Assembly: GCF_016863475.1 (NCBI RefSeq)
Contig: NZ_BOOY01000009.1
Coordinates: 1-64,000 of the forward strand
Source: Spirilliplanes yamanashiensis
Lineage (GTDB): Bacteria; Actinomycetota; Actinomycetes; Mycobacteriales; Micromonosporaceae
Direction of reading: 5' to 3'
Length of the DNA stretch: 64,000 bases
In this document: positions 9,059-23,377 of the stretch, in pieces
How the letters are laid out: every line of letters starts with the position of its first letter
Numbering within the stretch: position 1 is the first letter of the stretch
Program-made: the position numbers and the translations under genes
Notes under the pieces: model-generated
The model's input: only the letters and a program-made list of their open reading frames with translations
Told to the model about the DNA's origin: nothing
The model's database searches: none

Positions 9059-11079
9059 CTCACGACCGTGCCGTTGGCCGTACCCGTGAGGGCCGAGATC
9101 TTCCGGTCGGCGACGCCGAGCTGCTGCGCGGCGTCGAGCAGCTCCCGCAGCTTGCCGGCGTCGGCGCCGCCGGCCTTGATCTGCTGGGTGAGGAACGCGG
9201 CCAGCGTCATATTCGCGATGTCGCCCGTGGACACCCCGCCCAGCACGCGGCCCAGGTCCTCGGCGAGGTTCGCCGAGCCGTCCAGGTACCGCGCCCCGAT
9301 GCCCTGCGCCACCGTGGAGTGGCCGACGAACCCGTCGAGGCTCTTGCCCATCGTGATCGAGCCGAGCAGCTTGTCGAAGAACACCGAGTCGCCGCCGACG
9401 ATGTCGATGTTCGCCTTCTCCAGGCCCGCGGAGACCACCATCGCCTGCGACTCGGCGATCTGCCGGTGCACGTCGATGCCGGCGAGCCGGATCTCCTTCT
9501 CCATCTCCAGCCGCAGCCGGTACTCCTCGTGCTCGCGGGTCGCGTCGTCCAGCGCCGCCATCGCGCCGGCCTTCTCCTGCAGACCCTCGGCCTCGCCCTT
9601 CAGCTTCTCGCGGATCGCCTCCGCCGCCACCAGCGCCTTCTCGCGGTCCACGGCGGCCTCGGCGCGGCCAGTCTTCTCCACCACCTCGGCGTTGCGCTCG
9701 CGCACCTGCACGTCGGCCAGCCCCGCCGCGGCCGCCTCGGCCTGCGTCCCCTCGGCCAGCCGGATCTTCGCCCGGGCGTCCAGCTCCGCCGTCTGCTGCC
9801 GCGCCTCGGCCAGCGTCAGCTCCTCGCGCGCCTTGTGCTTCGCGGCCGCCTCGGCGGCCTCCGCCGCCTTGATGTCCTTGACCAGGTGCTCCTGCGCCTC
9901 CGCCTCGGCGGCGATGATGACGGCCTGCCGGGTCCGCTCCGCCTCCTCGACGACGCGCAGCCGCTTGATGTTCTCCTCCTGCTCGGCCACGGTCTTCTCG
10001 ACGGCGATGCGCTCGCGGATCACCTCGGCGATCGAGCGCTTCTCCGCCTCGACCTCCTTATTCTTCGCGATCGTCGACAGTTCCGTCTCCCGCTCGCGGC
10101 CGATCACCTCGAGCATCCGGTCCTTCTCGATGCGCTCCGTCTCGATCGCGATGACCCGCTCGCGGTTCTTCTCCGCCACGGCGATCTCGCGCGCCTTGTT
10201 CTCCTTCTGCACCCCGAGCTGCTGCTCGGTGCGCAGGTGCGCGCCCTCGGCGCGGAGCCGCTCCTCGGCGTGCGCCAGCGCGATCTCCGCCTCCTCGCGG
10301 GCCCGCATCGTCTCGATCTCCCGGCGCTGCTTGATCTCCGCGTCCGCCTGCCGGCGCTCCAGCTCGAGGATCGCCTCCTTGGCGTCCACGTTCTGCCGGG
10401 TGAGCTCCTTCTCCTCGTTGCGCTTGTAGTCGTTCGTCTTGATCGCCTCGATCGCCGTCAGCTCGGTGATCTTGCGAATGCCCTGCGCGTCCAGGATGTT
10501 CTTCGGGTCCAGCGACGACATCGGCGTCTGCTCGAGGTAGTCGATCGCCGCGTCCTCGAGGCTGTAACCGTTCAGGTCCGTGCCGATCACCTGGATGATC
10601 TGGTCGCGGAACTCGTCGCGCTTCGTGTACAGGTCGACGAAGTCCAGCTGCTTGCCGACCGTCTTCAACGCCTCCGAGAACTTCGCGCTGAACAGCTCCT
10701 GCAACGTCAGCTCGTTGCTCGCCCGCGCCGTGCCGATCGCCTGCGCCACCTTCACCACGTCCTCCACGGTCTTGTTGACCCGCACGAAGAACGTGATCCG
10801 GATGTCCGCCCGGATGTTGTCGCGGCAGATCAGACCCTCCCGGCCCGTCCGCGCGATCTCGATCGTCTTCACCGAGATGTCCATCGTCTCGGCCTTGTGC
10901 AGCACCGGCAGCACCACGGCGCCCGTGAACGTCACGTCCACCCGCCGCGTCTTGCTCACGATCAGCGCCTTGCCCTGCTCCACCTTGCGGAACAGCCGGC
11001 TGACGATGAGCGCCATGCCGATGACGACGACGAGAATGACGGCCAGCAGGATGCCGAGCCCGGTGGAGATGACGTCCAT
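9055..11079 (-). CDS. SPFH/band-7 flotillin family protein (YqiK-like) with long C-terminal coiled coil
   Basis: An N-terminal TM helix is followed by an SPFH core (KALIVSKTRRVDVTFTGAVVLPVLHKAETMDISVKTIEI...RADIRITFFVRV). An extended EA/KR-rich heptad region follows. Confidence 0.9.
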   Translation of the reverse strand: MDVISTGLGILLAVILVVVIGMALIVSRLFRKVEQGKALIVSKTRRVDVTFTGAVVLPVLHKAETMDISVKTIEIARTGREGLICRDNIRADIRITFFVRVNKTVEDVVKVAQAIGTARASNELTLQELFSAKFSEALKTVGKQLDFVDLYTKRDEFRDQIIQVIGTDLNGYSLEDAAIDYLEQTPMSSLDPKNILDAQGIRKITELTAIEAIKTNDYKRNEEKELTRQNVDAKEAILELERRQADAEIKQRREIETMRAREEAEIALAHAEERLRAEGAHLRTEQQLGVQKENKAREIAVAEKNRERVIAIETERIEKDRMLEVIGRERETELSTIAKNKEVEAEKRSIAEVIRERIAVEKTVAEQEENIKRLRVVEEAERTRQAVIIAAEAEAQEHLVKDIKAAEAAEAAAKHKAREELTLAEARQQTAELDARAKIRLAEGTQAEAAAAGLADVQVRERNAEVVEKTGRAEAAVDREKALVAAEAIREKLKGEAEGLQEKAGAMAALDDATREHEEYRLRLEMEKEIRLAGIDVHRQIAESQAMVVSAGLEKANIDIVGGDSVFFDKLLGSITMGKSLDGFVGHSTVAQGIGARYLDGSANLAEDLGRVLGGVSTGDIANMTLAAFLTQQIKAGGADAGKLRELLDAAQQLGVADRKISALTGTANGTVVR

Positions 11080-11672
11080 CAGCTGTCCTTAGAGTCTCGT
11101 GGTTCCAGCGCGACGTCGGCGGGGACCACCCAGAAGAACTCCCCGTCCGCGTCGAAGTCGTAGAGCACCGCGACGGTGCCGTACCGCAGCTCGTCCTGCC
11201 CCGCCTGGCGCACCTGCACCAGCGCCGTCGACCCGTCGGCCGCCGCCACCTCCGCCTGACCGAACCGGTCGGTCACCCGCTGCGTGCGGATCACCGCCGT
11301 CCGCCCGAGGAAGTGCTGCCGCGACGGCTCCACGCCCGTCGGCATCGCCCTGCGCAACACCGCGACGAGCAGGCGCGTCGTCACCCACGCCGTGACGAGC
11401 GCCGCCGCGAGGGCGATCGCACCGGCGCCGGGCACGTTCTCCAGCAGGACGGCACCGGCCAGGCTGACGAACCAGGCCACGGCGATCAGCAACGACAGCG
11501 CCACGGTGACGGGCACGCCCCCGAGCCCGACACTGCCGAAGGCGTCCTCACCGAGACTGTCGGTGTCCGCCCCGCCGACCATGACGACCAGCCAGTAGAC
11601 GACCACCACGGCGAGCAGGAAGGTGAACAGAACGGTCGGGAAGCTCAACGCCGCCTCGACGAACCCGCCCAT
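11079..11672 (-). CDS. NfeD/YqiJ-like membrane protein (3 TM helices plus C-terminal OB-fold-like beta domain)
   Basis: Three hydrophobic helices are followed by a ~70-aa beta-rich tail. It sits immediately upstream of the flotillin gene and overlaps it by 1 nt, which is the classical NfeD-SPFH arrangement. Confidence 0.7.
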   Translation of the reverse strand: MGGFVEAALSFPTVLFTFLLAVVVVYWLVVMVGGADTDSLGEDAFGSVGLGGVPVTVALSLLIAVAWFVSLAGAVLLENVPGAGAIALAAALVTAWVTTRLLVAVLRRAMPTGVEPSRQHFLGRTAVIRTQRVTDRFGQAEVAAADGSTALVQVRQAGQDELRYGTVAVLYDFDADGEFFWVVPADVALEPRDSKDS

Positions 11673-11751
11673 CCCGCCCCCGTCTCAGTTGTCCTGGTGC
11701 CGCCCTAGATGATGGCAGGAGGGTGCAAGATCCGTTGCCCCGTCGACGGCC

Positions 11752-11765
11752 GGACGGATCCGTCC
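11752..11765. promoter_or_regulatory. Perfect 14-bp palindrome GGACGGATCCGTCC ~80 bp upstream of the NfeD-flotillin-ATPase-TIR operon start; candidate operator
   Basis: Read directly from the sequence. It lies in the non-coding leader of the minus-strand operon. Confidence 0.3.
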
Positions 11766-12338
11766 GAACGGACATTTCAACGCAACGTTGAGGGGGCACG
11801 GTCAGAGATGTGACACAAGCAGCGCAACCTCACGCCATATAAACGACGCCGCGCCCGGCGACCGTCGGCATCCTCCATCACGCGCGTGTCTGTGCGCATG
11901 GTTCTTCGGCGGCGGTGCTCACTGCCCACCTCTCGATCGGCCCATCGCGGACCGACGCCCTGGCCACACGTAGCGCCGGCCGAAGCAGCTTCACGTCATC
12001 AAGAACGGCCTGGCCGAAGCCGGACCGTACGCACGCACTCAAGGTCCATGGCCTCGCGCGCCCACCAACACCAAGTACCCCAATGAAGGCCAAGACGGTG
12101 GACCGTCAAGGCCGTTACGGTCCCTCCACCCATCACCCGGCGGAGGCAATTCCCGGGATCGACGCATTAGCCGGTTGCCGACAATGCCGGGACTTGACAG
12201 AACATTGACGGCAAATTGAGCATGCGGCCACCACCCTTCGGCGCTGGCGCCACTCCTCGCAGCCATTGAGTGCGGACTTCTAGGGACACCGCCGTCCAAC
12301 GTTATGGACGGCGCCCTTTGCTCGCCGTCGTTGTCGTG

Positions 12339-12629
12339 TCAAATTCGATCGTAGACAGGGGTGTACTCGGGCGCAGTCTCAGGAACATCCGGGTATCGAA
12401 TGGTGCCCTCAGTCTCCCACCAGCGGCTCGTATACTCGCTCGGATTCTTGTACTCGAAGATCGCTACTAGGCCAAGCAGGGAGACCGGACTGTCCGCCCA
12501 GAAATCCCAGCCATCTCGCTCAGCGCAATACGCATCCTGCTTCCGGTCGTACCACACGGAGAATCCTTTATTCTCCAGGACTGCGATCGCCGTCGTGTAG
12601 ACATTCACGTGCTCGCTCAGCGCTGGCAT
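12339..12629 (-). CDS. Candidate immunity protein (96 aa) for the RHS C-terminal toxin
   Basis: It starts 8 nt downstream of the RHS stop on the same strand. Its composition is non-junk (W/Y/E rich) and its GC is markedly lower than the genome, matching the adjacent toxin tip. Confidence 0.5.
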   Translation of the reverse strand: MPALSEHVNVYTTAIAVLENKGFSVWYDRKQDAYCAERDGWDFWADSPVSLLGLVAIFEYKNPSEYTSRWWETEGTIRYPDVPETAPEYTPVYDRI

Positions 12630-12637
12630 CCCTACCC

Positions 12638-15600
12638 CTATCTGTTCCGGATGAGAGTTATCGCGTCGTGCGGAATCGAGCCTACGAAGAGAACCTCCTC
12701 AGCACGCCGCGCATCGCGCACCACGCGTGAGTCACCACTCCTGTTGGCGGCTTGCATGACGTTATTGTGATCAATAAACTTGGCCCCGCCCGCAATTGCC
12801 TTATTGACATCGATTGCAACCATTCCTTGACCTGAGGCGAACCGTTCGGTCGCTCCCTCAGTCACCGACGCAGAGATGTGCTTGGTCGGCCGGTTCAAAA
12901 TATGGTCGGTTATGGACCCGGTGGTACCGCGAGGCTGCAGGTCTTCGCCCTTGTCGAATGCCGTACGATCATCATAGTTCAGCTGCCGGTAAACCGTTGG
13001 CCCACAGTCCGCGCTGTTCCTACTCCTGTTGTTGTTGTGGACCAGTACCGGCGTGTCGCCGGCTGTCACATAGTACGTGTGGATGTCGGCCACGGTCAGG
13101 TCGCGCATTTCGCGCTTACCGTGATAATTGCGGACCGCCGCGACGACGACCCCGCTTCCTTCCACGCCCAGCTTCGTGCCCCGCCGGAGGTTCTTGGCGT
13201 CTGTCCACTTCCGGTCAGTGGCGTTCCAGAACGGGTGGTTCTGCGTCGTCTTCAGGACGTACGTCTTGCCCTTGTTGTTCCGGACCTTGAGGTCGGTCAG
13301 CTCACGGTCGAGATTGCGATGAATCGCGGTGACCTGCCGGTCACCAGATTTCCCGGTCTCCGGGTCCTTCGCCTCGACCTTGTCGCCGACGTTGACGTCC
13401 TTGATGGGACGGGTTGAGCCGTCTGCCATCAGCACCTCGGTGTCGGGGTCGAAGCTGTGCTTCGCTCCCTTGGCAGGTGCTGTCAGGCACCCGTGCCCGC
13501 CGCCGACCGAGACGCCGGCCACGCCGACGGCCGACTGCAGCCCGCTGCCACCGGAACCACCACCCTTGCGGTTGAGCAGGCTGAGGCCCGGGACCATACC
13601 GAGAACAGACGACTTCACGTCCACCCGGCCCGTCGTGACAGCCTGCCCGACGACGTCCTCGACGCCGTTCTGGGCCGCCTCCGTCGCCAGACGACCGGCC
13701 CAGCCCGTGCCCACACGCGCCGCCACCGCGGTGCCGACCTTCGCGGCGATGAGACCGCCCGCGCCACCCGCAAGACCCGACAGCGCGCCGGTGCCCAGCG
13801 ACCCGAGTGCGTCGCCCAACGAGTTGATGTCGCCTTGCAGGCCGTCCTTGGCCAGGTTGATCAGCGCGGCCGTTCCGGCCATACAGGCGATCGCGCCCAC
13901 GCCGGCTGTCACCGCCGTGCAGGCCACGCCGGCCAGGATCGCGCCACCGATCGCCGCGATCTCCAGCAGCATGTTCTTGTTGTTCTGCACAAACTTCTTC
14001 GTGGCGGCCACGCCGTCCTGGATGACGCTGACGGTTTTGCCGATCCCTCTGGCTACCTTCGCGAACGCTTTCTTGTGCGCCTGGAAGATTCTCGTTCGCT
14101 CGACCGCCGCGGCGATCGATTTCGCTTTCTGGGCGACCCACTTCCGGGCGCTGTTCGCCGTCTTCTGCACCCAGTTCTTGGCGCTGCTCCACGCCTTGGA
14201 GACGCTGTGGACCGCCTTACTGATGGTGCGGCCGACCGCCTTGACCGCCCGGGCGGCGTAGTTGTAGACCGACACGGCACCGCGGTAGAACGCCGTCGAC
14301 TGCACGTAGTTCTTCGTCGCCGTCCAGGCCGTCGAGACCACCGACGACACCGCGCTCTTGGCCTTGTTCCACGCGCCCTTGAAGCTCCAGTGGCCTGTCG
14401 GGTCCGTGTTCTTCAACGGGTTGGCGTCGCCGTACTGGTAGCGGTTGGCGCTGACCGAGTCCGGGACCGGGCTGACCGACGCCATGTCCCGGGTGTCGAA
14501 CTGGCCGGTGTCGACGTTGTACCAGCGCGCGTGCATGTTGACGCGGTTGGTCGCGGTGTCCTTCCACTCCGACTGGTAGCCGAGGCCGCCGACCAGGCCG
14601 GTCGACTGCAGGACTGCGCCCAGCGGGTCGTACGTCGCCGAGCCGATCAGGGTGGGGCTGTCGGCGGTGAACTGGCCCACGACGTCGTCGTGCTGGTCGG
14701 TCCAGACGTTGCGGGTGGCGCCCGCGGACCTGGTCGCGACCACGTCGCCGGCGCTGTCGCGCACGTACGTCGCCGACCCGTCGGCCGCCAGGTCGTTGCC
14801 CAGGCCTGAGTACGAGAAACCGTCTCGGATGGAGCGGCCGAGCGCGTCGTAGCGGTAGGTCTGGCTCGCCTGGTTGACGACCTGCCCGAAGGCGTCCGAG
14901 CGGGTGGTCTGGCCGCCCGCCGAGGCGAGCGTGCCCCGCGGCGTGTACGCGTACGAGGTGCCGTTCGCCGTCTTCAGGCGGTTGCGTTCGTCGTACGTGA
15001 ACAACTTCTCGCCGTTCTGCACGCGGTTGCCGGACTTGTCGTACGCGTACGCGGTGATCTTCGTACCGTCGTTCCAGGCCACCAGGCGGTCGGCGTAGTC
15101 GTACTCGTAGCTGTTGTCTGCGGAGCCGGCAAAGCCGGTGGTCTTCTTGCGGAGCAGGTTGTCGTTGTCGTCGTACTCGTACTCGATCTTGGCGATGGAG
15201 GCGCCCGCGCCGGTCTTCAGCTCGTCGACGATCGGGCGGTTGAAGTCGTCGAAGGCGATGTTGCGTGTGTTGCCCGTGCCGAACGTGACCTTCTCGACCT
15301 GCGACAGCTTGTTGTAGTCGTAGCTCTCCCGGATGCCTGCGGTCGTGTTGGCGAGGGTCTTGACCCGGCCCGCGCTGTCATAGGTGAACGACGTCCGGCC
15401 GGCGGCGTCCTCGCGCTCCGCAACTTCGCCGTCGTCGGTGTAGGAGAACGTCGTGTTGCCCGACGGGCCCGTAATTGAGGTGGGCAGTCCGCGGTCGTCG
15501 TACGACAGGACGTTCGTGCCGCCGACGCCGGAGAACTTCGTCATCCGGCCGCCGGTGTCGTAGTCGAACTCGCGGTTCTCCGTCGCCGCCTCGGCACCCG

Positions 15601-18600
15601 CGCCGACCTGCTTGCGCAGCTTGCCCATCTCGTCGTACTCGCTGGTCAGCGTGACGCCGCCGGGCAGCACCTGCTTGGCGGGGCGGCCTGCCCGGTCGTA
15701 CGCCGTGGTGAAGGTGCGGTCGGCCAGGTCGGGGTGCGCGGCCGTGGCAGGCTCGATCTGCGACTCCGGCAGGCCGAGCGAGTTGTACGTCGTCCAGAAC
15801 GCGTTGCGGCGGCCGTCGGTGAACCGGGTGCGGTTGCCCGCCAGGTCATAGCCGAACGTGGTCTCGATGTGGTCGGAGTCGGAGATCGGCTGGATCTGCT
15901 TGACCAGCATGTTGGTAGCGTCGTACTCGAAGGTCGTCGTGTTGACGTTGGGATCCGTGCTCTCGACCACGTTGCCGGCCGGATCGTACGACGTATGGGC
16001 CGTGTGCCATTCGCCCTCGGCACCCTGCGTGAGAACTCTCGTCACCCGACCGGCAGAGTCGCGGTTCTCCGTGATCTCCGTGCCGTCCGGCAGGTACGTC
16101 GACGTGTACCCGCCGCCGTACTCGAAGCGGGTGATGTTGCCGGCGCCGTCTGTCTCGGTCAGCGGCCGGCCGGTCGCGTCGTACGTCGTCTTGGTAGTGA
16201 CCTTGCCGGGCGAGACGGTCTCTGCGAGCCACCCGCCGTAGCCGTAGCGATAGTCGGTGGTCAGTTGCTTGCCGGTCTGCCGCACCGCGGTTGTCGTGGT
16301 GACCTGCCGGCCGAGGAAGTCCCAAGTGGCGGCATTCACTGCTCCGTTGGGATCGGTCATCTGCAGCACGTCGCCGACCAGGTTGTAGCGGTAGCGGGTC
16401 TCGCCGCCGTTCGCCGCCGTCACCTTCGCGAGGCGATCGAGCTGGTCGTAGGTGTACCGGGTGGTCTTGCCGAGCGGGTCGCGCACCGACTCCAGGCGAC
16501 CCGACGGGTCGTAGTTGTTGACCACCTCGGGGACCACGGCCTCCGACGTACCGGGCGCGGTGTAGCGCGGCAGCTTGGACGACGTGGCCCTGCCGTCGGC
16601 GTCAAAGGTGGTGACCGACCAGTTTCCGTTCTCGTCCTTGGTGTCGGTCGTCTCGCCGAAAGTGTTGTAGCCGGTCCAGCTGACCGCGTTCGCCATGACC
16701 GAGCCACCGGTGGCGGTCTCGCTGAGCGCCGCCGGAGCCGTCGTCCTCACCGGCCGCCCGGCCTCGTCGTTGGCGAAGTAAGTTGTGTTGCCGTTCGGAT
16801 CGACCGTGGAGACGATCCGGCCGTTGCGGTCGCGCTTGTGGATGGTCCGGACGACCTGGCCGCTGTCCAGCCCGCCGTTGAGAATGTTGCGCTCGATGTT
16901 CGTCACAGCGTGCTGGTAGACCCTGACGTCGCGGACGGCGCCCGCCCAGCGGTCCGTGGCTCCCCCCGCGTACTTCCCCCGGCCAATGACGAAGGCGTTG
17001 TGACTCGGCAGCGGCTTGTTCAGGATCGTCGAACCTTCAAGCTTGCCGTTGACGTAGAGCTTCATCGACCGGTCGGTCGCGTCGTAGGCAGCCGCCAGGT
17101 GCGTCCATGTGTCGAGCTGCGGCACGGACGTCGAGAATGTGTTCTGGCCGGACCAGCTGTCGGCGTCGGCGCTAGGAACGGTCATCGACCACCGGTCGCT
17201 GGTGGCCTTGTACTGCAGGTAGAAGGCGCTGGCGCGCTCGCCGTCCTGGGAGAGCACGGTGCGGTTGCCACTCTTCGTGGTCAGCTTGACCCAGGCCGCA
17301 ACCGTGTAGCTGCTGGTCGTGTTGAGCGCGGGTCCAGGAGTCTCGACGGAGCCTGAACCGTTCAGGAGCAGGCCCCCGTCACGCTCGGCGGACCAGCTCG
17401 CGCCGGTGTCGAGCGCGCCGGTGAGGCTGCCCACGGAGTCAGGTGCGCTATTGCCCGCCTTCTCGGCGAGCGACCAGCGAGCCACCGGGTCGTACCGGCT
17501 CCCGGTGTGCGTCGTCTCGGTGAGCAGGGCGCCGGTCGCTGAGAACGATGACAGGACGGAACTGACGTCGAAGTACGCTCCGCCCTTGCCGTCGCCCTCA
17601 CGGTGCACCGTCGACACGACGTTGTCGTCGGCGTCGTAGGTGAGCTCGGTCAGGCGGTCGACGCCCGTCGGGTCGGTGCGGGAGCTGGTCTGGCGGTTCG
17701 CCGCGTCGTAGGTGTACTCGGTGGCCGTGGCGCCCTGGTTCGTGATCGCCTTCGTGACGTTGCCGGCGGCGTCGTAGAAGTTTTCCGCCAGCACGACGGT
17801 CTTCTCGCCGTCGGTGCGGGTCGTCTTCGCCTGGAGGCCGTCGTCCGTGTACGTGTGGCTGGTCGTCCAGCCCATGGCGTCCGTCTCGGAGGCCAGGCGG
17901 CCGGCCGGGTCGTACGAGCGGGACACCACCACCAGGTCCTTGGCGGGCTGGGGGTCGTTCGGGTCGCCCGTCCAGCCGAGCAGGGTTGAGGTGAGCAGGC
18001 GGCCCGCTGCGTCGTACGCGTTGCGGACCACGCCGCCGTCGTCGCTCTCCTCCTCGGCGATGCGGCCGTACGCGTCGTAGCGGTAGACCGTCGTGCGGCC
18101 GCCCGGAGACGTGTCGCTGGTCTCCTGGCCGTACTCGTTGAAGGTGTGCCGCTGGGTGCGGGTCGCGTCGCCGCCGGTGAGGTCCTGCTCGATGACGGCG
18201 GTGGTGTTGCCGTCGCGGTCGTACTCGTTGGTGGTCAGCTTGGTGTGGACCGCCCCCGTGACGCGGTTTGTGACGCCCGGGTCCCGCACGGTCTTCGCGC
18301 GGCCCATCGCGTCGTACGTGTACGTGGTGACCAGGCCCTGCGGGTGGGTGTCGGTGACCTCGGTCTGGGTGGCGCGGCGGCCGAGGCCGTCGTAGGTGAA
18401 GGTGGTGACCTTGCCGGCCGGGTCGGTCACCTCGGCGACGTCGCCGGTGGCGTAGTACCTGACGGTCTGCTTGGCGCCGCCGGGCGTGACAACCGTGGTC
18501 GGCAGGCCGGCGGGGGTGACGCCGCCGCCGACGGCGGCCGTGGTGGCCGTCGTGTACGTCGTGGCCGTCACCCGGCCGAGCGGGTCGGTGACCGCCGTCC

Positions 18601-21600
18601 GGTTGCCCTGGGCGTCGTAGGCGTACGACGTCAGGTACGTGTTGTCCGTGGCGGAAGCGGAGCGGCCGTCGCGCGACGTCAGCATCAGGTCGTTGCGGGC
18701 GTCGGGCGCCAGCGTGGTGCTCGTCGCGTCCGGGTAGTACGTGAAGTACACCGAGGAGCACTTGTTCGCGGCCTGGTTCTGGCAGGTGATGGTCTGCTTG
18801 GTGTTGCCGCGCACGTCCTGCAGGTTCTGCGTCCACACACCGTTCGGGTCGTAGATGAGGCTGCCGAAGCCGCCGACGTCGTAGCCGAACCTCGTCTCGT
18901 TGCCGAGGGCGTCGCCCTGTGCCACGAGGCGGTTTCCGTTGACCAGGTCGTAGCTGGAGACGAGCTGCTCGCCGGAGGGGCCGGTCACCGTCACCCGGGA
19001 GACGGGCATCGGCACGGCCTTGGCGACGCCGGCAACCATGGTGACGGCGACCGGGGCGGTCTGCTTCGCCGCCGCCCAGTGCGCACTCACCTGGTCGACG
19101 CTCAGCGTCGACGGCACGTAGGCGACCTCGGCGATGGAGCCGGGGAAGTAGCCGGCGGCGGGCGTCGTCGTGCTGCCCGTCCACCCGGCCGACCACTTGC
19201 CGGCCCCGACGTAGGCGTGCACGGCAGCGGTCGGCTTCAGATCGCCGTCGAGCTTGCCGACCAGCTGGCCGTCGAGATACAGCGACTGGGTGGCCGGAGC
19301 GGCGGACAGCACCACGTGGTGCCACTTGCCGTCGTTCACGGCGTTCTTGCTGACGATGGACTGGACCTTGCCGGTCCAGAGCCCGCCCCGAAGCTTGCCG
19401 TCCGTGCCGACGTAGATGGCGGGCACCCAGGCGCCCTCGTTGCTGGCGACCTCGCTCATCTCGACGGTCTGATAGCCGTAGAGGATGCCGCCCGCGGTGC
19501 TCCTGTTCGCCATCTTGAACCACATGGAGATGGACGCCGGGTCGGTGCTCGGCACGTCGGCCTCAGGCATCTCCAGGTACGACGAGGTGCCGTTGAAGCT
19601 CGCCGCAGTGGCGTCCTCGAAGGGCCCGGGCACGCCCAGCGTGACCTGGTTGAAGCCGGCGTCGCCGCCCGCGACCTCGTTGACCGGGTCCCCGACGTCG
19701 CTCTCGGCCAGCCGGAAGTAGTCGGCCGGGCGGGCGCCGAGCACCGAGGCGGCGTACACGTCGCTGCTGCCGACCACCGTCGGCGCCGCCAGCTTCCAGG
19801 TGCCGCCGTTCTCGTCGGTGACCTGTGCGACGTTGCCGGTGACGCGGTCGTAGGCGACTGCGGCGGTCACGCCGCCGGAGGGCCGGACGACCCGGTCCAG
19901 CACAGGCTGCTTCGTCACGCCGGCGTTGCGCAGCTGCGCGACGGTGCCACCGGTCAGCGCCTGGTTGAACACCGCCACGTCGGAGATGGCGCCGTTGAAG
20001 TAGGTGGCCGGAGCGGGCGCCTTGCCGGAGTTCGCGTGGTCAGGCCAGCTGCCACCTACGAAACCGGCGCCGACCACGACGTTGTTGCTGCTGGCCGCGG
20101 ACCACGTGACGATCGTGCCGGCAAGCGTGGCCCGGGCGACACCGTCGACGTACAGGGTCTGCGAGTCACCCGCACCGGCGAGCGCGACGTGGTGCCACTT
20201 GCCGTCGGTGACCTTGATACCCGAGTTCATCGTCTTGGCGGCGCTGCCCATCCAGAACTGGCCGCGGAGATTGCCGTTCTTGTCGACGTACAGCGCCGGG
20301 GTGTAGTCGCTGGTTGCGCTGCCCTTGGTGACGGGTGTGCCGTTGTAGCTGAACAGCACGCCGTTCGGCGTCGACGTCCGGAACCACATGCTGACCGTCT
20401 GGTACTGCCCGTTGGCGATGAGCTTTCCGGGCAGCTGGACGTGCGAGCTCGTGCCGTTGAAGCCGGCGGTCGTCGCCTCCGATCCGGCGAGGCCGGCAGG
20501 CTGGCCGAGCGCGACGTCGGCGTACCGCGCGTTGTCCGTCCCGGCGTTGCTCAGCACGGCACTGGCGGCGGTCTGGCCGGCGGTCTCCCGCAGCGGCCAG
20601 TACGACGTCGGGCCGGCGTTGAGCACCGTGTTGGCGTACTGGGAAGTGTCGGCGTGACCGTACTTCCAGCACTGGTCGGCGCCGTCGGGCTGGCAGACCC
20701 GCTCCAGCCGGTCGTCGGCGCCGTAGGTGTACGTCCACGTGCCGGCGCTCTCCGGCCGCGCCGGGTCGGCACGATCGGTGATCACCTGGGTGACGTGCGG
20801 CTGTGTGGAGCCGGTCGGCGTGGCCCAGCGCAACGTGAGGCTGCGGCCGGACGCCGCGGTCAGCTTCTCGGGGTTGCCCGCCGCGTCGTGCGTGACGGTC
20901 AGCCTGCGACCGTTCGCATCGGTGATGGAGGTCAACCGGTAGACGCCGGCACCTGCGGCGCGGCCGAACGCGTAGACGCTCGCGTCCTTGTCGGTCAGCG
21001 TGTAACCGGTAAGCGTCGTGCCGCTCTTGGTCTCGGTGAAGGTGGCGAAACGGCCCTGCGGCGGCGTGAAGGAGCCGTCGGGCCTGCGACCGAACGCCAG
21101 GTCCTGCCCCGTCGGGTACGTCACCGCGACGGTCTGCACAGTCCCGGCGGCGTCCTTCACCTGGGTGGCGCGCATGTCGAGCACGCTCGCCCACCCCGTG
21201 CCGAACGCGTTGGTGCGGCGCGTGTCGAGGCTGTTGTAGCTGCGGGTCAACGCCAGCGACGGGCCGACGGTCGGCACGCTGGCGTCGGTCGCGGACGTCG
21301 TGTAGTTGCCGGTGCTCGGGTCGTACCCCTTGCCGGGGTTCTGCGCGAGGCCCGAGGTGATGAGCGGCTGCGGCACCGACGTCGTGAACGACCACGGCAG
21401 CGTGATGCCGCTCTTGGTGACGGTGTCGTCGACCTGAGCGCTCCACAGGTACGTGCCGTTCCAGGCGAGCTTGCCGGCCGGCACGGTCCAGGCGGCGGAC
21501 GAGATGGACCCGGAGTCCGCCACCGCGACCTTGGGACTCTTGATGTCGTACACCGTGAACTGGTACTTCAAGCCCTTGTTGGGCCAGGCGTCGCCGTCCT

Positions 21601-23377
21601 TGGCACGGACGATCAGCTCGGGGGTGAGCGTCGGCATGACCGCGTTGGCGGCCGGGTAGCGGGCATCGATCTGCGGCTTGACGTTCTCCGCGTACGTGAG
21701 CTCCAGAACCGGCGAAAAGCTGCCGCCGGAGACGTTCGCCGAGGTGAACCGCTTGAACGCCGGCTCGTCGCCCGCACCCTCGCCGGCCACCAGGGCGAGA
21801 CCGTTGTTGGCGGCGCCCTTCGACCAGTCGTTGAAGGTGGTGACGTTCAACGGCACGGTCACCCACTGGCCGATCGTCGGGTCGCCGCCCGTGTTGCCGC
21901 ACGTCGCCGACGTCGGCGTCGGATTGAGGGAACCGACGGTGGCGGAGGTCAGCGCGGGTCCCGGCCAGGCGCCGTCGGTCTGGCCCGCGACCGTCCACTT
22001 CTCGCTGATCCGGCGGACGGTGAACGGCTGGGTGCTGTTGCACCGGTACGCCCAAGTCATGTGCAGCTTGAGCTTGGCCGCGGTGATCCGCATGCCCTTG
22101 AAGCCCTGGTCGTCGAACTTGTCGAAGTGGATGAAGGACCGGTACTTGTGGGTGCCGCCGTCCCAGGTGCCGACCGGCAGGTCGTTGCCGTTGCCGTTGG
22201 CGGCCGGCTGGTTGTCCACCATCACGTCGCCCGTGGCCACCGTGCTGGCGGTCGGGTCGACCCGCACCGGGAAGACGCGGGCCGGGTCGCGCAGCCACGC
22301 CTGGCTCGCGTCGACCCGCAGCGCCCAGCCGCCATCGCGCTCGAGCAGTGCGTAGGTGATGTCGCCGGAGTCGGCCGGCGCACCCGACCGGGGGTCGACC
22401 TTCGAGTCGTACATGTAGCCGGCCGGGAACCATGCCACGGTCTCGCCGGCGGCGTTGCGCAGCTCGACGTCGTTGTGCTCGCCCAGGTGCGGCGTCAGCC
22501 CCTTGAGGCGCAGGGGGAACACCCAGGACGACGGCGCGTCCGGGGAGTGCAGGACCAGCGTCTCCTTGACGCCGGCGTCGAAGGTCTCCAGCTCGAGGTC
22601 CGTCGCGGGCAGGACGGCCGGGTACGTGGACCTGATCCCGTCCACCACGCCCGTGGCCGGTGCCGCGCCCTCCAGCCAGTAGCCGAAGGACTCGCCGGTC
22701 GGCAGCGTGACGGTGGCCAATTCCTCGGTGCGGCGGACGTCCTCCGCCTGAGCGGCCGGTGCCGCGGCAGCGCGCACGGCCGAGGCCGTCGGGCGGCCGA
22801 TCCGGCTCGTGACGGAGACCCCGATGCTGTTGGCCGCCATGTGCAGGCGCCCGTCGGCGCGCTTGACGAGGTCGAGGTCGATCGGCTGGAAGGTGCCGTC
22901 GGCGGCCTCGTAGTTCACGGGGCGGCCGTAGCGGCGCGTCGTCCGGGATCCGTCGGCGTTCTGGAAGACGTCGGTCGACGCCGTCGAGCGGTTCGCGAGC
23001 CGCTTGCTGGTCCTCGCGTCGAAGGTGCCCTCGCCGTCGGCGACGGTCTTCGCCGCCGACGGGTCGTGCGGAACGTACGGGTCGAGCGTGCCCGGGGCCT
23101 GGACCGGCTTACGGCCCGTGCCACCACCTGCGCGGGTGTCGGCGGCGGAGGCCGGGCGGCCGTCGAGCGCGCCGGGTCCGCGTTCCTGCTGTGGCAGTCC
23201 CGTCACCGAGGCGAGCGCCGACGACTGGCCGAGCCACGACCACATCCAGGAGATCGGGAAGTCGCCTTCCGGCACCGCGCCCGGCGGTACGGCCACATTC
23301 AGCCCGAGCACCGCCGCAACGACGACACCGACCCGTTTCCAGGCACGCAGCATCCCCGTCTCCTCCCCCGTGATCAC
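12638..23377 (-). CDS. RHS/YD-repeat polymorphic toxin (3579 aa): signal peptide, 3 LamG-like domains, YD repeats, RHS core, Lys/Ala-rich helical region, glycine-zipper hydrophobic segment, Hint domain, C-terminal toxin domain of unassigned family
   Basis: Many YD motifs are present (TYTYDAMGR, YRYDAYGR, YDAAGRLL and others). The RHS core end motif is YGDANPLKNTDPTGHW. The Hint motifs are CLTAPAKG...TEVLMADGS...HNHPFW...VLVHN. The last ~130 aa are unique and low-GC. Confidence 0.9.
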   Translation of the reverse strand: MITGEETGMLRAWKRVGVVVAAVLGLNVAVPPGAVPEGDFPISWMWSWLGQSSALASVTGLPQQERGPGALDGRPASAADTRAGGGTGRKPVQAPGTLDPYVPHDPSAAKTVADGEGTFDARTSKRLANRSTASTDVFQNADGSRTTRRYGRPVNYEAADGTFQPIDLDLVKRADGRLHMAANSIGVSVTSRIGRPTASAVRAAAAPAAQAEDVRRTEELATVTLPTGESFGYWLEGAAPATGVVDGIRSTYPAVLPATDLELETFDAGVKETLVLHSPDAPSSWVFPLRLKGLTPHLGEHNDVELRNAAGETVAWFPAGYMYDSKVDPRSGAPADSGDITYALLERDGGWALRVDASQAWLRDPARVFPVRVDPTASTVATGDVMVDNQPAANGNGNDLPVGTWDGGTHKYRSFIHFDKFDDQGFKGMRITAAKLKLHMTWAYRCNSTQPFTVRRISEKWTVAGQTDGAWPGPALTSATVGSLNPTPTSATCGNTGGDPTIGQWVTVPLNVTTFNDWSKGAANNGLALVAGEGAGDEPAFKRFTSANVSGGSFSPVLELTYAENVKPQIDARYPAANAVMPTLTPELIVRAKDGDAWPNKGLKYQFTVYDIKSPKVAVADSGSISSAAWTVPAGKLAWNGTYLWSAQVDDTVTKSGITLPWSFTTSVPQPLITSGLAQNPGKGYDPSTGNYTTSATDASVPTVGPSLALTRSYNSLDTRRTNAFGTGWASVLDMRATQVKDAAGTVQTVAVTYPTGQDLAFGRRPDGSFTPPQGRFATFTETKSGTTLTGYTLTDKDASVYAFGRAAGAGVYRLTSITDANGRRLTVTHDAAGNPEKLTAASGRSLTLRWATPTGSTQPHVTQVITDRADPARPESAGTWTYTYGADDRLERVCQPDGADQCWKYGHADTSQYANTVLNAGPTSYWPLRETAGQTAASAVLSNAGTDNARYADVALGQPAGLAGSEATTAGFNGTSSHVQLPGKLIANGQYQTVSMWFRTSTPNGVLFSYNGTPVTKGSATSDYTPALYVDKNGNLRGQFWMGSAAKTMNSGIKVTDGKWHHVALAGAGDSQTLYVDGVARATLAGTIVTWSAASSNNVVVGAGFVGGSWPDHANSGKAPAPATYFNGAISDVAVFNQALTGGTVAQLRNAGVTKQPVLDRVVRPSGGVTAAVAYDRVTGNVAQVTDENGGTWKLAAPTVVGSSDVYAASVLGARPADYFRLAESDVGDPVNEVAGGDAGFNQVTLGVPGPFEDATAASFNGTSSYLEMPEADVPSTDPASISMWFKMANRSTAGGILYGYQTVEMSEVASNEGAWVPAIYVGTDGKLRGGLWTGKVQSIVSKNAVNDGKWHHVVLSAAPATQSLYLDGQLVGKLDGDLKPTAAVHAYVGAGKWSAGWTGSTTTPAAGYFPGSIAEVAYVPSTLSVDQVSAHWAAAKQTAPVAVTMVAGVAKAVPMPVSRVTVTGPSGEQLVSSYDLVNGNRLVAQGDALGNETRFGYDVGGFGSLIYDPNGVWTQNLQDVRGNTKQTITCQNQAANKCSSVYFTYYPDATSTTLAPDARNDLMLTSRDGRSASATDNTYLTSYAYDAQGNRTAVTDPLGRVTATTYTTATTAAVGGGVTPAGLPTTVVTPGGAKQTVRYYATGDVAEVTDPAGKVTTFTYDGLGRRATQTEVTDTHPQGLVTTYTYDAMGRAKTVRDPGVTNRVTGAVHTKLTTNEYDRDGNTTAVIEQDLTGGDATRTQRHTFNEYGQETSDTSPGGRTTVYRYDAYGRIAEEESDDGGVVRNAYDAAGRLLTSTLLGWTGDPNDPQPAKDLVVVSRSYDPAGRLASETDAMGWTTSHTYTDDGLQAKTTRTDGEKTVVLAENFYDAAGNVTKAITNQGATATEYTYDAANRQTSSRTDPTGVDRLTELTYDADDNVVSTVHREGDGKGGAYFDVSSVLSSFSATGALLTETTHTGSRYDPVARWSLAEKAGNSAPDSVGSLTGALDTGASWSAERDGGLLLNGSGSVETPGPALNTTSSYTVAAWVKLTTKSGNRTVLSQDGERASAFYLQYKATSDRWSMTVPSADADSWSGQNTFSTSVPQLDTWTHLAAAYDATDRSMKLYVNGKLEGSTILNKPLPSHNAFVIGRGKYAGGATDRWAGAVRDVRVYQHAVTNIERNILNGGLDSGQVVRTIHKRDRNGRIVSTVDPNGNTTYFANDEAGRPVRTTAPAALSETATGGSVMANAVSWTGYNTFGETTDTKDENGNWSVTTFDADGRATSSKLPRYTAPGTSEAVVPEVVNNYDPSGRLESVRDPLGKTTRYTYDQLDRLAKVTAANGGETRYRYNLVGDVLQMTDPNGAVNAATWDFLGRQVTTTTAVRQTGKQLTTDYRYGYGGWLAETVSPGKVTTKTTYDATGRPLTETDGAGNITRFEYGGGYTSTYLPDGTEITENRDSAGRVTRVLTQGAEGEWHTAHTSYDPAGNVVESTDPNVNTTTFEYDATNMLVKQIQPISDSDHIETTFGYDLAGNRTRFTDGRRNAFWTTYNSLGLPESQIEPATAAHPDLADRTFTTAYDRAGRPAKQVLPGGVTLTSEYDEMGKLRKQVGAGAEAATENREFDYDTGGRMTKFSGVGGTNVLSYDDRGLPTSITGPSGNTTFSYTDDGEVAEREDAAGRTSFTYDSAGRVKTLANTTAGIRESYDYNKLSQVEKVTFGTGNTRNIAFDDFNRPIVDELKTGAGASIAKIEYEYDDNDNLLRKKTTGFAGSADNSYEYDYADRLVAWNDGTKITAYAYDKSGNRVQNGEKLFTYDERNRLKTANGTSYAYTPRGTLASAGGQTTRSDAFGQVVNQASQTYRYDALGRSIRDGFSYSGLGNDLAADGSATYVRDSAGDVVATRSAGATRNVWTDQHDDVVGQFTADSPTLIGSATYDPLGAVLQSTGLVGGLGYQSEWKDTATNRVNMHARWYNVDTGQFDTRDMASVSPVPDSVSANRYQYGDANPLKNTDPTGHWSFKGAWNKAKSAVSSVVSTAWTATKNYVQSTAFYRGAVSVYNYAARAVKAVGRTISKAVHSVSKAWSSAKNWVQKTANSARKWVAQKAKSIAAAVERTRIFQAHKKAFAKVARGIGKTVSVIQDGVAATKKFVQNNKNMLLEIAAIGGAILAGVACTAVTAGVGAIACMAGTAALINLAKDGLQGDINSLGDALGSLGTGALSGLAGGAGGLIAAKVGTAVAARVGTGWAGRLATEAAQNGVEDVVGQAVTTGRVDVKSSVLGMVPGLSLLNRKGGGSGGSGLQSAVGVAGVSVGGGHGCLTAPAKGAKHSFDPDTEVLMADGSTRPIKDVNVGDKVEAKDPETGKSGDRQVTAIHRNLDRELTDLKVRNNKGKTYVLKTTQNHPFWNATDRKWTDAKNLRRGTKLGVEGSGVVVAAVRNYHGKREMRDLTVADIHTYYVTAGDTPVLVHNNNRSRNSADCGPTVYRQLNYDDRTAFDKGEDLQPRGTTGSITDHILNRPTKHISASVTEGATERFASGQGMVAIDVNKAIAGGAKFIDHNNVMQAANRSGDSRVVRDARRAEEVLFVGSIPHDAITLIRNR

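Follow-up and report, generated by a model that had tools for sequence, protein, structure and literature searches.

The 3' end of a giant RHS gene of the actinomycete Spirilliplanes yamanashiensis encodes, with a probability that we put at roughly 80%, a modular toxin/immunity cassette. The toxin would have an ADP-ribosyltransferase (ART) fold, be released by a HINT domain, ADP-ribosylate a nucleic acid or a protein and be neutralised by a 96-aa protein encoded immediately downstream, and the whole cassette would have been gained by recombination. The window analysed is the whole stretch of 64,000 nucleotides that contains this locus, and the features referred to below are the following:

Positions 12638 to 23377, minus strand: RHS gene, 3579 aa if read from a GTG; the ATG at 23353 (3571 aa) is the more likely start.
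Positions 14387 to 23353, minus strand: predicted delivery scaffold, with an N-terminal hydrophobic segment, DUF6531, three Laminin_G/ConA-like domains, YD/RHS repeats and the Rhs-associated core.
Positions 13427 to 14386, minus strand: pre-toxin linker, residues 2998–3317, with a Lys/Ala-rich helical region and a Gly/Ala hydrophobic segment (GC3 0.89).
Positions 13034 to 13426, minus strand: pretoxin HINT (PT-HINT) autoprotease domain, residues 3318–3448, ending VLVH-N3448 (PF07591).
Positions 12641 to 13033, minus strand: C-terminal toxin domain (CT), RHS residues 3449–3579, 131 aa, predicted ART fold.
Positions 12986–12988 (R3464), 12872–12874 (S3502), 12839–12841 (F3513, aromatic) and 12695–12697 (E3561), minus strand: putative R-S-E type site.
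Positions 12630 to 12637, minus strand: spacer of 8 nt, G-rich (GGGTAGGG), separating the TAG that ends the RHS gene from the immunity ATG.
Positions 12339 to 12629, minus strand: candidate gene for the cognate immunity protein, which has 96 aa and is acidic (net charge -8).
Positions 12284 to 13144, minus strand: maximal nucleotide block shared with other Micromonosporaceae-type contigs (blastn, 77–84% identity).

The scaffold domains were assigned with Pfam and with the NCBIfam models TIGR03696 and TIGR01643, and the start was set from start-codon context together with the NCBI gene call, which gives a protein of 3571 aa. Its N-terminal hydrophobic segment looks like a signal peptide or a membrane anchor, and this giant RHS protein appears to be Sec-exported. 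The YD/RHS repeats are recognised by PF05593 (E 1e-81) and also by TIGR01643, and the Rhs-associated core (TIGR03696, 45 bits against a cutoff of 32.5) ends at DPTGHW. It is followed by the linker, in which hydropathy delimits a hydrophobic Gly/Ala segment of about 40 aa (residues 3135–3176), and by the PT-HINT domain (PF07591, E 7e-19, 68.9–72.1 bits against a cutoff of 27.7, residues 3318–3449). The C-terminal His-Asn of this domain is present as H3447-N3448 within VLVHN, and the toxin is predicted to be released at the LVHN end. The initial annotation had proposed this same order of core, Gly/Ala segment, HINT and CT, as well as a 96-aa ORF whose ATG lies 8 nt past the RHS stop; the domain searches bear out the former, with a CT of 131 aa, and direct reading of the sequence the latter. 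We infer a membrane-insertion role for the 'glycine-zipper' segment. The linker is assigned to the delivery scaffold, outside the exchanged cassette, because proteins that carry other CTs match it at 40–56% identity, with 98% of the query aligned. The tail that follows the core measures 582 aa, which is large for encapsulation in the RHS shell and counts against the best explanation of the locus. The full layout, which runs from a secretion signal through RHS and a pre-toxin HINT to a variable CT with its immunity gene alongside, is the same as that of the polymorphic toxins with PT-HINT, for which processing by HINT, tips of the R-S-E ART type and diversification through recombination with standalone cassettes have been described (Zhang et al. 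2012, PMC3482391).

According to the structure model, the tip is an ART-fold domain of the R-S-E type. A split beta-sheet ART fold is confidently predicted for the CT, with R3464 in model strand 14–18, S3502 and S3504 in 54–57 and E3561 at 114–117, and the R, the first S and the E, on strands 1, 2 and 5, are invariant among 29 CT family members. The R / S-x-S / E pattern, which had earlier been rated as weak, is thereby borne out. A Q/E-x-E motif is absent from the CT, where an Ala stands two positions ahead of the Glu. Searches of the CT against Pfam, NCBIfam, PADLOC and PHROGs returned nothing significant, the Tox-ART models of the Zhang et al. 2012 catalogue included, and the Pfam Scabin-like model (PF22596) gave no match. 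A partial match to DUF7587 (PF24494), seen in one of four members (14.9 bits against a cutoff of 27, E 0.03), was rejected, as was a reading of the locus as a defence or toxin-antitoxin system, given that the tip forms the C-terminal end of an RHS protein of 3571 aa whose N-terminus has a signal-peptide-like segment, and that there is no PADLOC match. ART folds may also be NAD(P) glycohydrolases and not transferases, Tne5 being an example (PMC13285283), and the tip could in principle kill by NAD depletion as an NAD(P)+ glycohydrolase, like Tne-type effectors. This is considered unlikely; a Tne5-type ART-fold NADase, which has a non-canonical Lys/Glu pocket and is closest in structure to the S. 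pyogenes NADase, was rejected on the active-site pattern and on the structural neighbours.

Within the PDB, the CT family profile matches only chain 9zdm_B, which is RhsF-CT (TreThr) of Chromobacterium violaceum, and profile comparison shows that the CT is related in sequence to this toxin, distantly but significantly. In hmmsearch against PDB sequences, the E-value of this chain went from 0.22 with a 4-sequence profile to 1.5e-9 (41 bits) with a 29-sequence profile, whose positions 4–119 correspond to 9zdm_B residues 13–125 in a full-length, collinear alignment; the S. yamanashiensis CT used as a single query showed no significant similarity to RhsF-CT. R1403, S1445 and E1497 of RhsF-CT align with R3464, S3502 and E3561 (residue mapping counted by hand), and Tyr1456 of the TreThr R-Y-E triad pairs with Ala3514, the conserved F/Y (F3513) being one column off. 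RhsF-CT, for which the depositors reported no BLAST relatives, is toxic, modifies charged tRNA-Thr by ADP-ribosylating its GGU anticodon and is neutralised by an immunity protein encoded downstream (bioRxiv 10.64898/2025.12.06.692724; PMC13617354). The TreThr/RhsFi system (PDB 9ZDM; NAR 2026) resembles the one described here in having an Rhs C-terminal tip of about 125–130 aa with an ART fold, in sharing its top structural neighbours with the CT (TreX; Scabin or ScARP) and in having the immunity gene directly 3'. The two toxins nevertheless have low identity, and RhsFi consists of six alpha-helices, whereas the immunity protein modelled here combines an alpha/beta fold with a WW tail, its profile giving no match to the 9zdm chains at E<=10. 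Delivery differs as well, since TreThr depends on FIX/VgrG/T6SS and direct DPLGL cleavage, whereas the actinomycete protein has an N-terminal signal-peptide-like segment, Laminin_G and PT-HINT. Carrying the TreThr target over to the CT by analogy is weak, because identity is low and Tyr1456 lies one column off the conserved F/Y. The TreX/TriX and TreTu/TriTu pairs (Xenorhabdus bovienii, Salmonella; 8S2M, 9GCO, 7ZHL), a type whose targets are the proteins FtsZ and EF-Tu, have no detectable sequence similarity to the CT, which is also smaller than the guanine-specific ARTs Scabin, ScARP and pierisin and, unlike them, is paired with an immunity gene.

The CT family comprises at least 128 protein clusters at 50% identity, in which the domain is almost always C-terminal, and is patchily present in Actinomycetota, Myxococcota and Gammaproteobacteria. 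An exhaustive HMMER search was needed to recover it, a word-indexed homologue search having returned only 4 fragments. The carriers are diverse (PT-HINT in 12, RHS in 9, FG-GAP in 5 and the Tc-like SpvB/TcdB in 3 of the 58 scanned), and the sequence that precedes the CT in the homologues is DPLGL, LVHN or non-RHS. The CT and the 96-aa protein had no tblastn match among 72,556 plasmids, and viral contigs that were scanned likewise yielded none, so that neither a plasmid nor a phage can be named as the vehicle.

Composition sets this end of the gene apart from the rest of the window, in which mean GC is 0.734 (sd 0.041 over 700-nt windows). The cassette (12339–13036) has a GC of 0.569, below every 700-nt window of the 64 kb, the lowest of which (0.573, starting at 12301) itself lies inside the cassette. 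GC is 0.57 both in the last 131 RHS codons (12641–13033, minus strand) and in the 96-aa ORF (12339–12629), and takes an intermediate value of 0.62 in PT-HINT. GC3 is 0.94 in RHS residues 1–2997, 0.89 in the helical/Gly tail and 0.84 in PT-HINT, and drops sharply at the HINT/CT junction to 0.65 in the CT, with 0.69 in the 96-aa ORF. GC and GC3 thus deviate strongly from the background (0.57 against 0.734; GC3 0.65–0.69 against 0.94), as the proposal of the initial annotation required, and its sharp fall in GC at the RHS 3' end and in the 96-aa ORF stands, although the part within the RHS gene extends over about 400 nt and not about 600. A GC of 0.58–0.62 persists for some 440 nt 3' of the 96-aa ORF, to about 11900, with no coding signal. 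The 666-nt tract 3' of the immunity gene (11673–12338) contains only terminator-like hairpins, near 11850 and 12010, and yielded no ORF, codon-position GC signal, Rfam family or similarity to the fetched loci or to the window itself.

Homologues of the pre-toxin/HINT module give direct evidence of exchange at this boundary. Forty-seven of 52 end in ..VLVHN and then continue into unrelated tips of 54–169 aa, and the CT of the S. yamanashiensis RHS protein occurs in none of the 52. Pfam scanning of ten of them identified DddA-like, YwqJ deaminase, ribonuclease, Scabin-like and DUF3990 tips, and the precomputed Pfam accessions of further ones point to HNH and other domains. The identity to Micromonospora/Actinoplanes homologues rises from 20–47% in the HINT body to 60–87% from about residue 3420, and these same proteins have no alignable pre-HINT region. 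At the nucleotide level, blastn aligns three contigs, L008 with 83.8% identity over 807 nt (13086–12284), L009 with 81.3% (13144–12350) and L010 with 76.8% (13096–12354), so that the 5' edge of similarity falls at 13086–13144; the L008 cassette is carrier-less and lies beside a GntR gene. The cassette and the last ~30 HINT codons are compositionally foreign and share about 80% of their nucleotides with cassettes behind divergent or absent carriers. The apparent exchange unit is the 3' end of HINT (last ~30 codons), the CT, the immunity gene and at most 55 nt beyond. A horizontal swap of the CT/immunity cassette, as first proposed, is thus supported by the same scaffold bearing other tips, by the same CT on other carriers and by the identity step near residue 3420.

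It could be argued that the cassette is vertically inherited and that its low GC is a local effect of the amino-acid content, or of weaker selection on codons, in a toxin/immunity pair that evolves fast. The nearest cassettes (77–84% nucleotide identity) all come from the same actinomycete family, Micromonosporaceae, and cassette GC is below host GC in nearly every host examined, including Pectobacterium (0.30–0.38 against 0.52–0.56) and the myxobacteria, which suggests a systematic bias. Cassettes of this type may thus tend to be GC-poor in general, in which case low GC would not mark recent transfer alone. However, it is not intrinsic to the cassette protein sequences, because the copies in Mycobacteriales MAGs are nearly ameliorated, with a GC3 of 0.87–0.92. 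Vertical descent is further opposed by the coincidence of the GC3 step with the identity step and the lack of an alignable pre-HINT region, by the carrier-less L008 copy and the stubs and orphans found elsewhere, by the unrelated tips of the scaffold homologues and by the patchy presence in three phyla. It is thus improbable, and acquisition by recombination is the preferred reading.

The layout of RHS stop and immunity ATG suggests translational coupling or an operon. The 96-aa protein has no match in Pfam, NCBIfam, PADLOC, PHROG or PDB, the Imm models of the Zhang et al. 2012 catalogue included, and an SH3-like PAS20 match was judged spurious. AF2 predicts an alpha-beta3-alpha core with an ordered C-terminal tail/coil (pLDDT 93.5), and no credible relative emerged from PDB searches with the single sequence and with a 44-member profile or from Foldseek of the model, the best E-values being 0.23–0.35. 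The protein has 55 homologues; GWDF, LLGL and WW are invariant in the family, the last being W70 and W71 in the C-terminal tail, and the candidate is best described, on the basis of these searches, as a previously undescribed family. Its conservation beside homologous CTs, on which the initial annotation had made its proposal depend, is found at 14 of 14 independent toxin-anchored genome loci from three phyla, where a homologue lies 10–35 nt 3' of the CT on the same strand; the locus search used a 7-member CT alignment, the 29-member one being too diverse. Identities and distances of CT and immunity protein correlate (r 0.89, Mantel p ~2e-4). The 96-aa gene is an obligate downstream partner of the CT across Actinomycetota, Myxococcota and Gammaproteobacteria. 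None of six immunity-anchored contexts holds an intact full-length toxin (three orphans, one with a CT stub, one with the CT split by an IS, one with a CT but no carrier), and toxin-less stand-alone homologues occur in Corticimicrobacter, Cellulomonas, A. ianthinogenes and A. lobatus. That the protein is instead an accessory factor of the toxin, acting as chaperone or stabiliser or as an adaptor for export in the manner of Eag chaperones or of TrxA with TreX, is very improbable: strict adjacency suits either role and homology to known immunity families is absent, but toxin-less copies are common, as expected of protective orphan immunity genes and not of a toxin-dedicated chaperone, the gene is downstream and its small, acidic, cytoplasmic-looking product has a sequence in which no signal peptide can be seen, and the homologous RhsF-CT is neutralised by the product of its downstream gene.

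The model proposed for this immunity protein and its toxin is the following. After export, cyclisation of Asn3448, the reaction by which inteins are cut at their C-terminal end, would let PT-HINT cleave at this residue and free the 131-aa toxin, whose passage through the target-cell membrane may be aided by the helical and hydrophobic linker. In the target cytoplasm, the toxin would transfer ADP-ribose from NAD+ to a macromolecule that the cell cannot do without. The most likely substrate would be an RNA or other nucleic-acid component of translation, although a protein is possible; the RNA-type target is proposed by analogy with TreThr and from the structural neighbours Scabin and ScARP. The producer would be kept safe by the acidic 96-aa protein, which would bind the toxin 1:1 and close the NAD/substrate cleft, plausibly via its Trp-Trp tail. 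This binding mode is a conjecture, since the immunity fold is unrelated to that of RhsFi. New tips would be gained when an incoming or orphan cassette recombines homologously with the conserved block at the 3' end of HINT.

As a kind of system the locus is ordinary, because both RHS/HINT polymorphic toxins and tips of the ART type are well known. It offers a clear case of cassette exchange at a conserved HINT 3' end, with breakpoints placed within about 60–110 nt, and it comes from Gram-positive actinomycetes, in which RHS toxin delivery is poorly understood. The CT and immunity families lack Pfam/NCBIfam models, the immunity gene being annotated as 'hypothetical', and a large unannotated toxin family and its immunity family are now linked to TreThr, a tRNA-anticodon ADP-ribosyltransferase that was characterised only recently. 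It is conceivable, though less likely than not, that the pair represents a widespread unnamed ART family, a larger sister of the isolated TreThr, which might inactivate a particular translation RNA by ADP-ribosylation with another specificity, with a new immunity fold plugging the NAD cleft with its Trp-Trp tail and, in actinomycetes, HINT release from a Sec-exported RHS protein and not a T6SS. By analogy, TreThr/RhsFi and the candidate described here would be cases in which unrelated immunity folds neutralise the same type of toxin, and the family provides a natural variant set for how ART toxins choose their RNA targets.

The locus encodes a polymorphic toxin of the RHS/PT-HINT kind. Its exchangeable cassette codes for an ADP-ribosyltransferase (ART)-fold toxin of the R-S-E type, which forms the C-terminal tip (CT), and for a predicted immunity protein from a new family. 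The RHS core ending in DPTGHW, the Lys/Ala-rich region, the Gly segment, the HINT domain and the CT of about 130 aa proposed in the initial annotation are all recovered, the core and HINT with Pfam and NCBIfam, and the small ORF begins 8 nt after the RHS stop, as had been read from the sequence.

Features of the locus
12638..23377, minus: RHS ORF, 3579 codons from GTG
within it, minus: DUF6531, three Laminin_G/ConA-like domains and YD/RHS repeats (Pfam, NCBIfam)
within it, minus: Rhs-associated core TIGR03696, terminating at DPTGHW (NCBIfam)
13427-14386, minus: pre-toxin linker of 320 aa (residues 2998-3317) between RHS core and PT-HINT
3' of the core, minus: Lys/Ala-rich region, then, at residues 3135-3176, a hydrophobic Gly/Ala segment (~40 aa)
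residues 3318-3449: PT-HINT (Pfam, E 7e-19, over the gathering score), terminal VLVH-N3448
final 131 residues of the RHS protein, directly after HINT: toxin tip
12339..12629, minus: 96-codon ORF, ATG 8 nt past the RHS TAG
11673-12338: intergenic tract of 666 nt between the immunity gene and an NfeD-like membrane protein gene (11079-11672)
9055-11079, minus: flotillin/Band_7 protein, with the NfeD-like protein as partner
4163-9058, minus: 1631-aa protein whose translation shows, by eye, a putative ATPase-like P-loop motif

The ATG at 23353 is a likelier RHS start than the GTG at 23377, since GGAGGAG lies just 5' of it and it agrees with the 3571-aa gene call of NCBI. This start puts a hydrophobic signal-like segment close to the N-terminus (MLRAWKRVGVVVAAVLGL...), which from its sequence resembles a signal peptide or a membrane anchor. 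The linker at residues 2998-3317 matches no Pfam family; it is 40-56% identical in other RHS/HINT toxins that carry different tips, the organism-named ones being from Micromonosporaceae, and its hydrophobic segment possibly has a role in membrane translocation. HINT would cleave itself, freeing the toxin.

The base composition sets the cassette apart. GC is 0.569 over 12339-13036, against a window mean of 0.734 (700-nt windows, sd 0.041), lower than in every 700-nt window of the 64 kb; the lowest of these (0.573) starts at 12301. Along the RHS gene, GC3 falls from 0.94 (residues 1-2997) to 0.89 in the helical/Gly linker, 0.84 in HINT and 0.65 in the final 130 codons, with the steepest break at the HINT/CT boundary; in the 96-aa ORF it is 0.69. 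The drop described initially thus lies far outside the local distribution, although within the RHS gene it spans about 400 nt, not 600. Moderately low GC continues for ~440 nt past the 96-aa ORF. The tract at 11673-12338 (GC about 0.60-0.65) has terminator-like hairpins near 11850 and 12010, but no codon-position GC signal, Rfam match or similarity to any fetched locus, and is possibly the decayed remains of a cassette. The neighbours at 4163-11079 appear unrelated to the toxin locus.

Exchange of the tip is seen from both sides of the junction. A query of core end, linker and HINT retrieved 52 proteins at E<=1e-10, most of them metagenome sequences and the organism-named ones from Micromonosporaceae or other actinomycetes; several are 36-56% identical over 98% of the query. 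HINT ends in ..[VL]LVHN in 47 of the 52; the 54-169 residues after it bear no relation to the window tip, and the CT profile matched none of the 52. Pfam assigns several of these tips to DddA-like and YwqJ deaminases, a ribonuclease, a Scabin-like ART and DUF3990, and precomputed Pfam accessions on further homologues add HNH and additional domains. Conversely, when the CT profile was searched exhaustively with HMMER, 128 clusters matched at E<=1e-3 (93 at <=1e-10), in proteins of 60-2827 aa, with the domain at the extreme C-terminus except in a few weak matches. Its carriers, among 58 longer members scanned, include PT-HINT (12), RHS repeats (9), FG-GAP (5) and SpvB/TcdB (3), so the same CT does occur on other delivery domains. 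It follows DPLGL (RHS) in Pectobacterium, Yersinia, Xenorhabdus, Superficieibacter and Mycobacteriales MAGs, LVHN (HINT) in Micromonospora, Actinoplanes and Saccharospirillaceae, and non-RHS sequence in Corallococcus and Minicystis. In Superficieibacter, Yersinia nurmii and Pectobacterium carotovorum it lies in 145-217-aa ORFs starting inside the RHS core end, which are typical orphan rhs-CT/immunity modules 3' of main rhs genes; the cassette GC at these three loci is 0.30-0.38, well under the host flanks. In a 201-aa JGI metagenome protein (P0003) a CT homologue follows a PPDK_N fragment (PF01326) at the N-terminus; this ORF is probably chimeric or mis-called and no real architecture.

The breakpoints can be placed by comparison. 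Three fetched loci (L008, L009, L010) share 77-84% nucleotide identity with the window in alignments from 13086-13144 to 12284-12354; this block takes in the final 17-36 HINT codons, the CT and the immunity gene, with no more than 55 nt past it. Carriers from Micromonospora and Actinoplanes are 20-47% identical to the window protein in the HINT body and 60-87% from about residue 3420, with no alignable sequence upstream of HINT. This identity step coincides with the GC3 step, and the two fit recombination within DIHTYYV..G..VLVHN, the conserved block at the C-terminus of HINT. The cassette is richer in AT than its flanks in most hosts examined (0.30-0.38 against 0.52-0.56 in Pectobacterium, 0.57-0.59 against 0.71 in Micromonospora) but nearly ameliorated in Mycobacteriales MAGs (GC3 0.87-0.92); low GC is therefore a common property of such cassettes, which the protein sequence does not impose. 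No copies were found on plasmids or viral contigs. In L008 (946-1695, a JGI metagenome contig) the cassette has no carrier and adjoins a GntR regulator: the final ~20 HINT codons are followed by an intact CT, 92% identical in aa and missed in gene calling, and then by the immunity gene. It is the kind of standalone cassette from which recombination is thought to draw.

The 96-aa protein, annotated as hypothetical in Spirilliplanes yamanashiensis, has 55 homologues with invariant GWDF, LLGL and W70-W71. It is acidic (net -8), and its AF2 model (pLDDT 93.5) is alpha-beta3-alpha with an ordered tail. A genome scan seeded with CT patterns only gave 14 loci in three phyla, and a match to the 96-aa family HMM lies 10-35 nt downstream of the CT, on the same strand, in all 14. 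Across 14 cassettes, the CT and the 96-aa protein have correlated pairwise identities (r 0.89, Mantel p about 2e-4). None of six distinct contexts fetched via the 96-aa protein has an intact full-length toxin: it is absent altogether in Corticimicrobacter, Cellulomonas and A. ianthinogenes, a stub of ~24 CT codons remains in A. lobatus, and the metagenome contig L008 has its CT intact but lacks a carrier. In Nannocystis bainbridge (L002, 4106-5987, the same as L022) an IS with a DDE_Tnp_1 transposase (4415-5797) splits the CT and leaves the immunity gene intact downstream, a toxin undergoing inactivation with its immunity kept. In Corticimicrobacter populi (L001, 5600-8800) the orphan homologue lies among small unannotated genes, including one for an ankyrin-repeat protein, which may be an immunity-gene island. 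In the sampled loci the toxin is never found without the small protein and the small protein often without the toxin, which is the classical immunity signature. With the tip swapping, the 14/14 linkage and the mapped breakpoints, the horizontally exchanged CT/immunity cassette first proposed is borne out.

Pfam gives only a sub-threshold DUF7587 match for the CT. Its AF2 model (pLDDT 84.7) finds almost exclusively ARTs, the top Foldseek matches being pertussis S1, EcPltA, cholera toxin, CARDS, TreX/TreTu, Scabin and Tpt1/KptA. Invariant in 29 diverse family members are Arg (VYR), Ser (ISAS) and Glu (EVLF), in the window R3464, S3502 and E3561, which the model places on predicted strands 1, 2 and 5, the canonical R-S-E positions; an aromatic F/Y (F3513) is also conserved. 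Against PDB sequences the family profile matches a single chain, 9zdm_B, over its full length (E 0.22 with a 4-sequence profile, 1.5e-9 with 29). This chain is the C-terminal toxin of Chromobacterium violaceum RhsF, in which R1403, E1497 and Y1456 are essential for toxicity and S1445 contributes (bioRxiv 10.64898/2025.12.06.692724; PMC13617354). By residue count, R1403, S1445 and E1497 align to R3464, S3502 and E3561, and Y1456 falls one column past the conserved F/Y. Fold, triad and this match together show that the weak ART pattern suspected initially was right. An ART fold can also act as an NADase, as in Tne5, but that family is without the R-S-E triad and resembles SPN NADase (PMC13285283), so a transferase is the better bet for the window tip.

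The RhsF toxin was named TreThr in 2026 and uses NAD to ADP-ribosylate charged tRNA-Thr at its GGU anticodon (PMC13617354). Judged from the profile match, the tip is a remote homologue of this characterised RNA-targeting ART, in an unnamed toxin family related to TreThr; the homology is distant, and the target cannot be carried over from TreThr with confidence. Delivery also differs, by a signal-peptide-like N-terminus and PT-HINT in the actinomycete and by FIX/T6SS for TreThr. The TreThr immunity protein, RhsFi, is a six-helix protein whose R102 and W103 occlude the toxin site (bioRxiv 10.64898/2025.12.06.692724; PMC13617354), whereas the window protein is alpha/beta and matches it in neither sequence nor fold. 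The 96-aa protein would likewise occlude the site of its toxin, perhaps through a WW tail analogous to W103. The system is ordinary in kind; what is new are the unannotated toxin and immunity families and the connection to a toxin that modifies tRNA.
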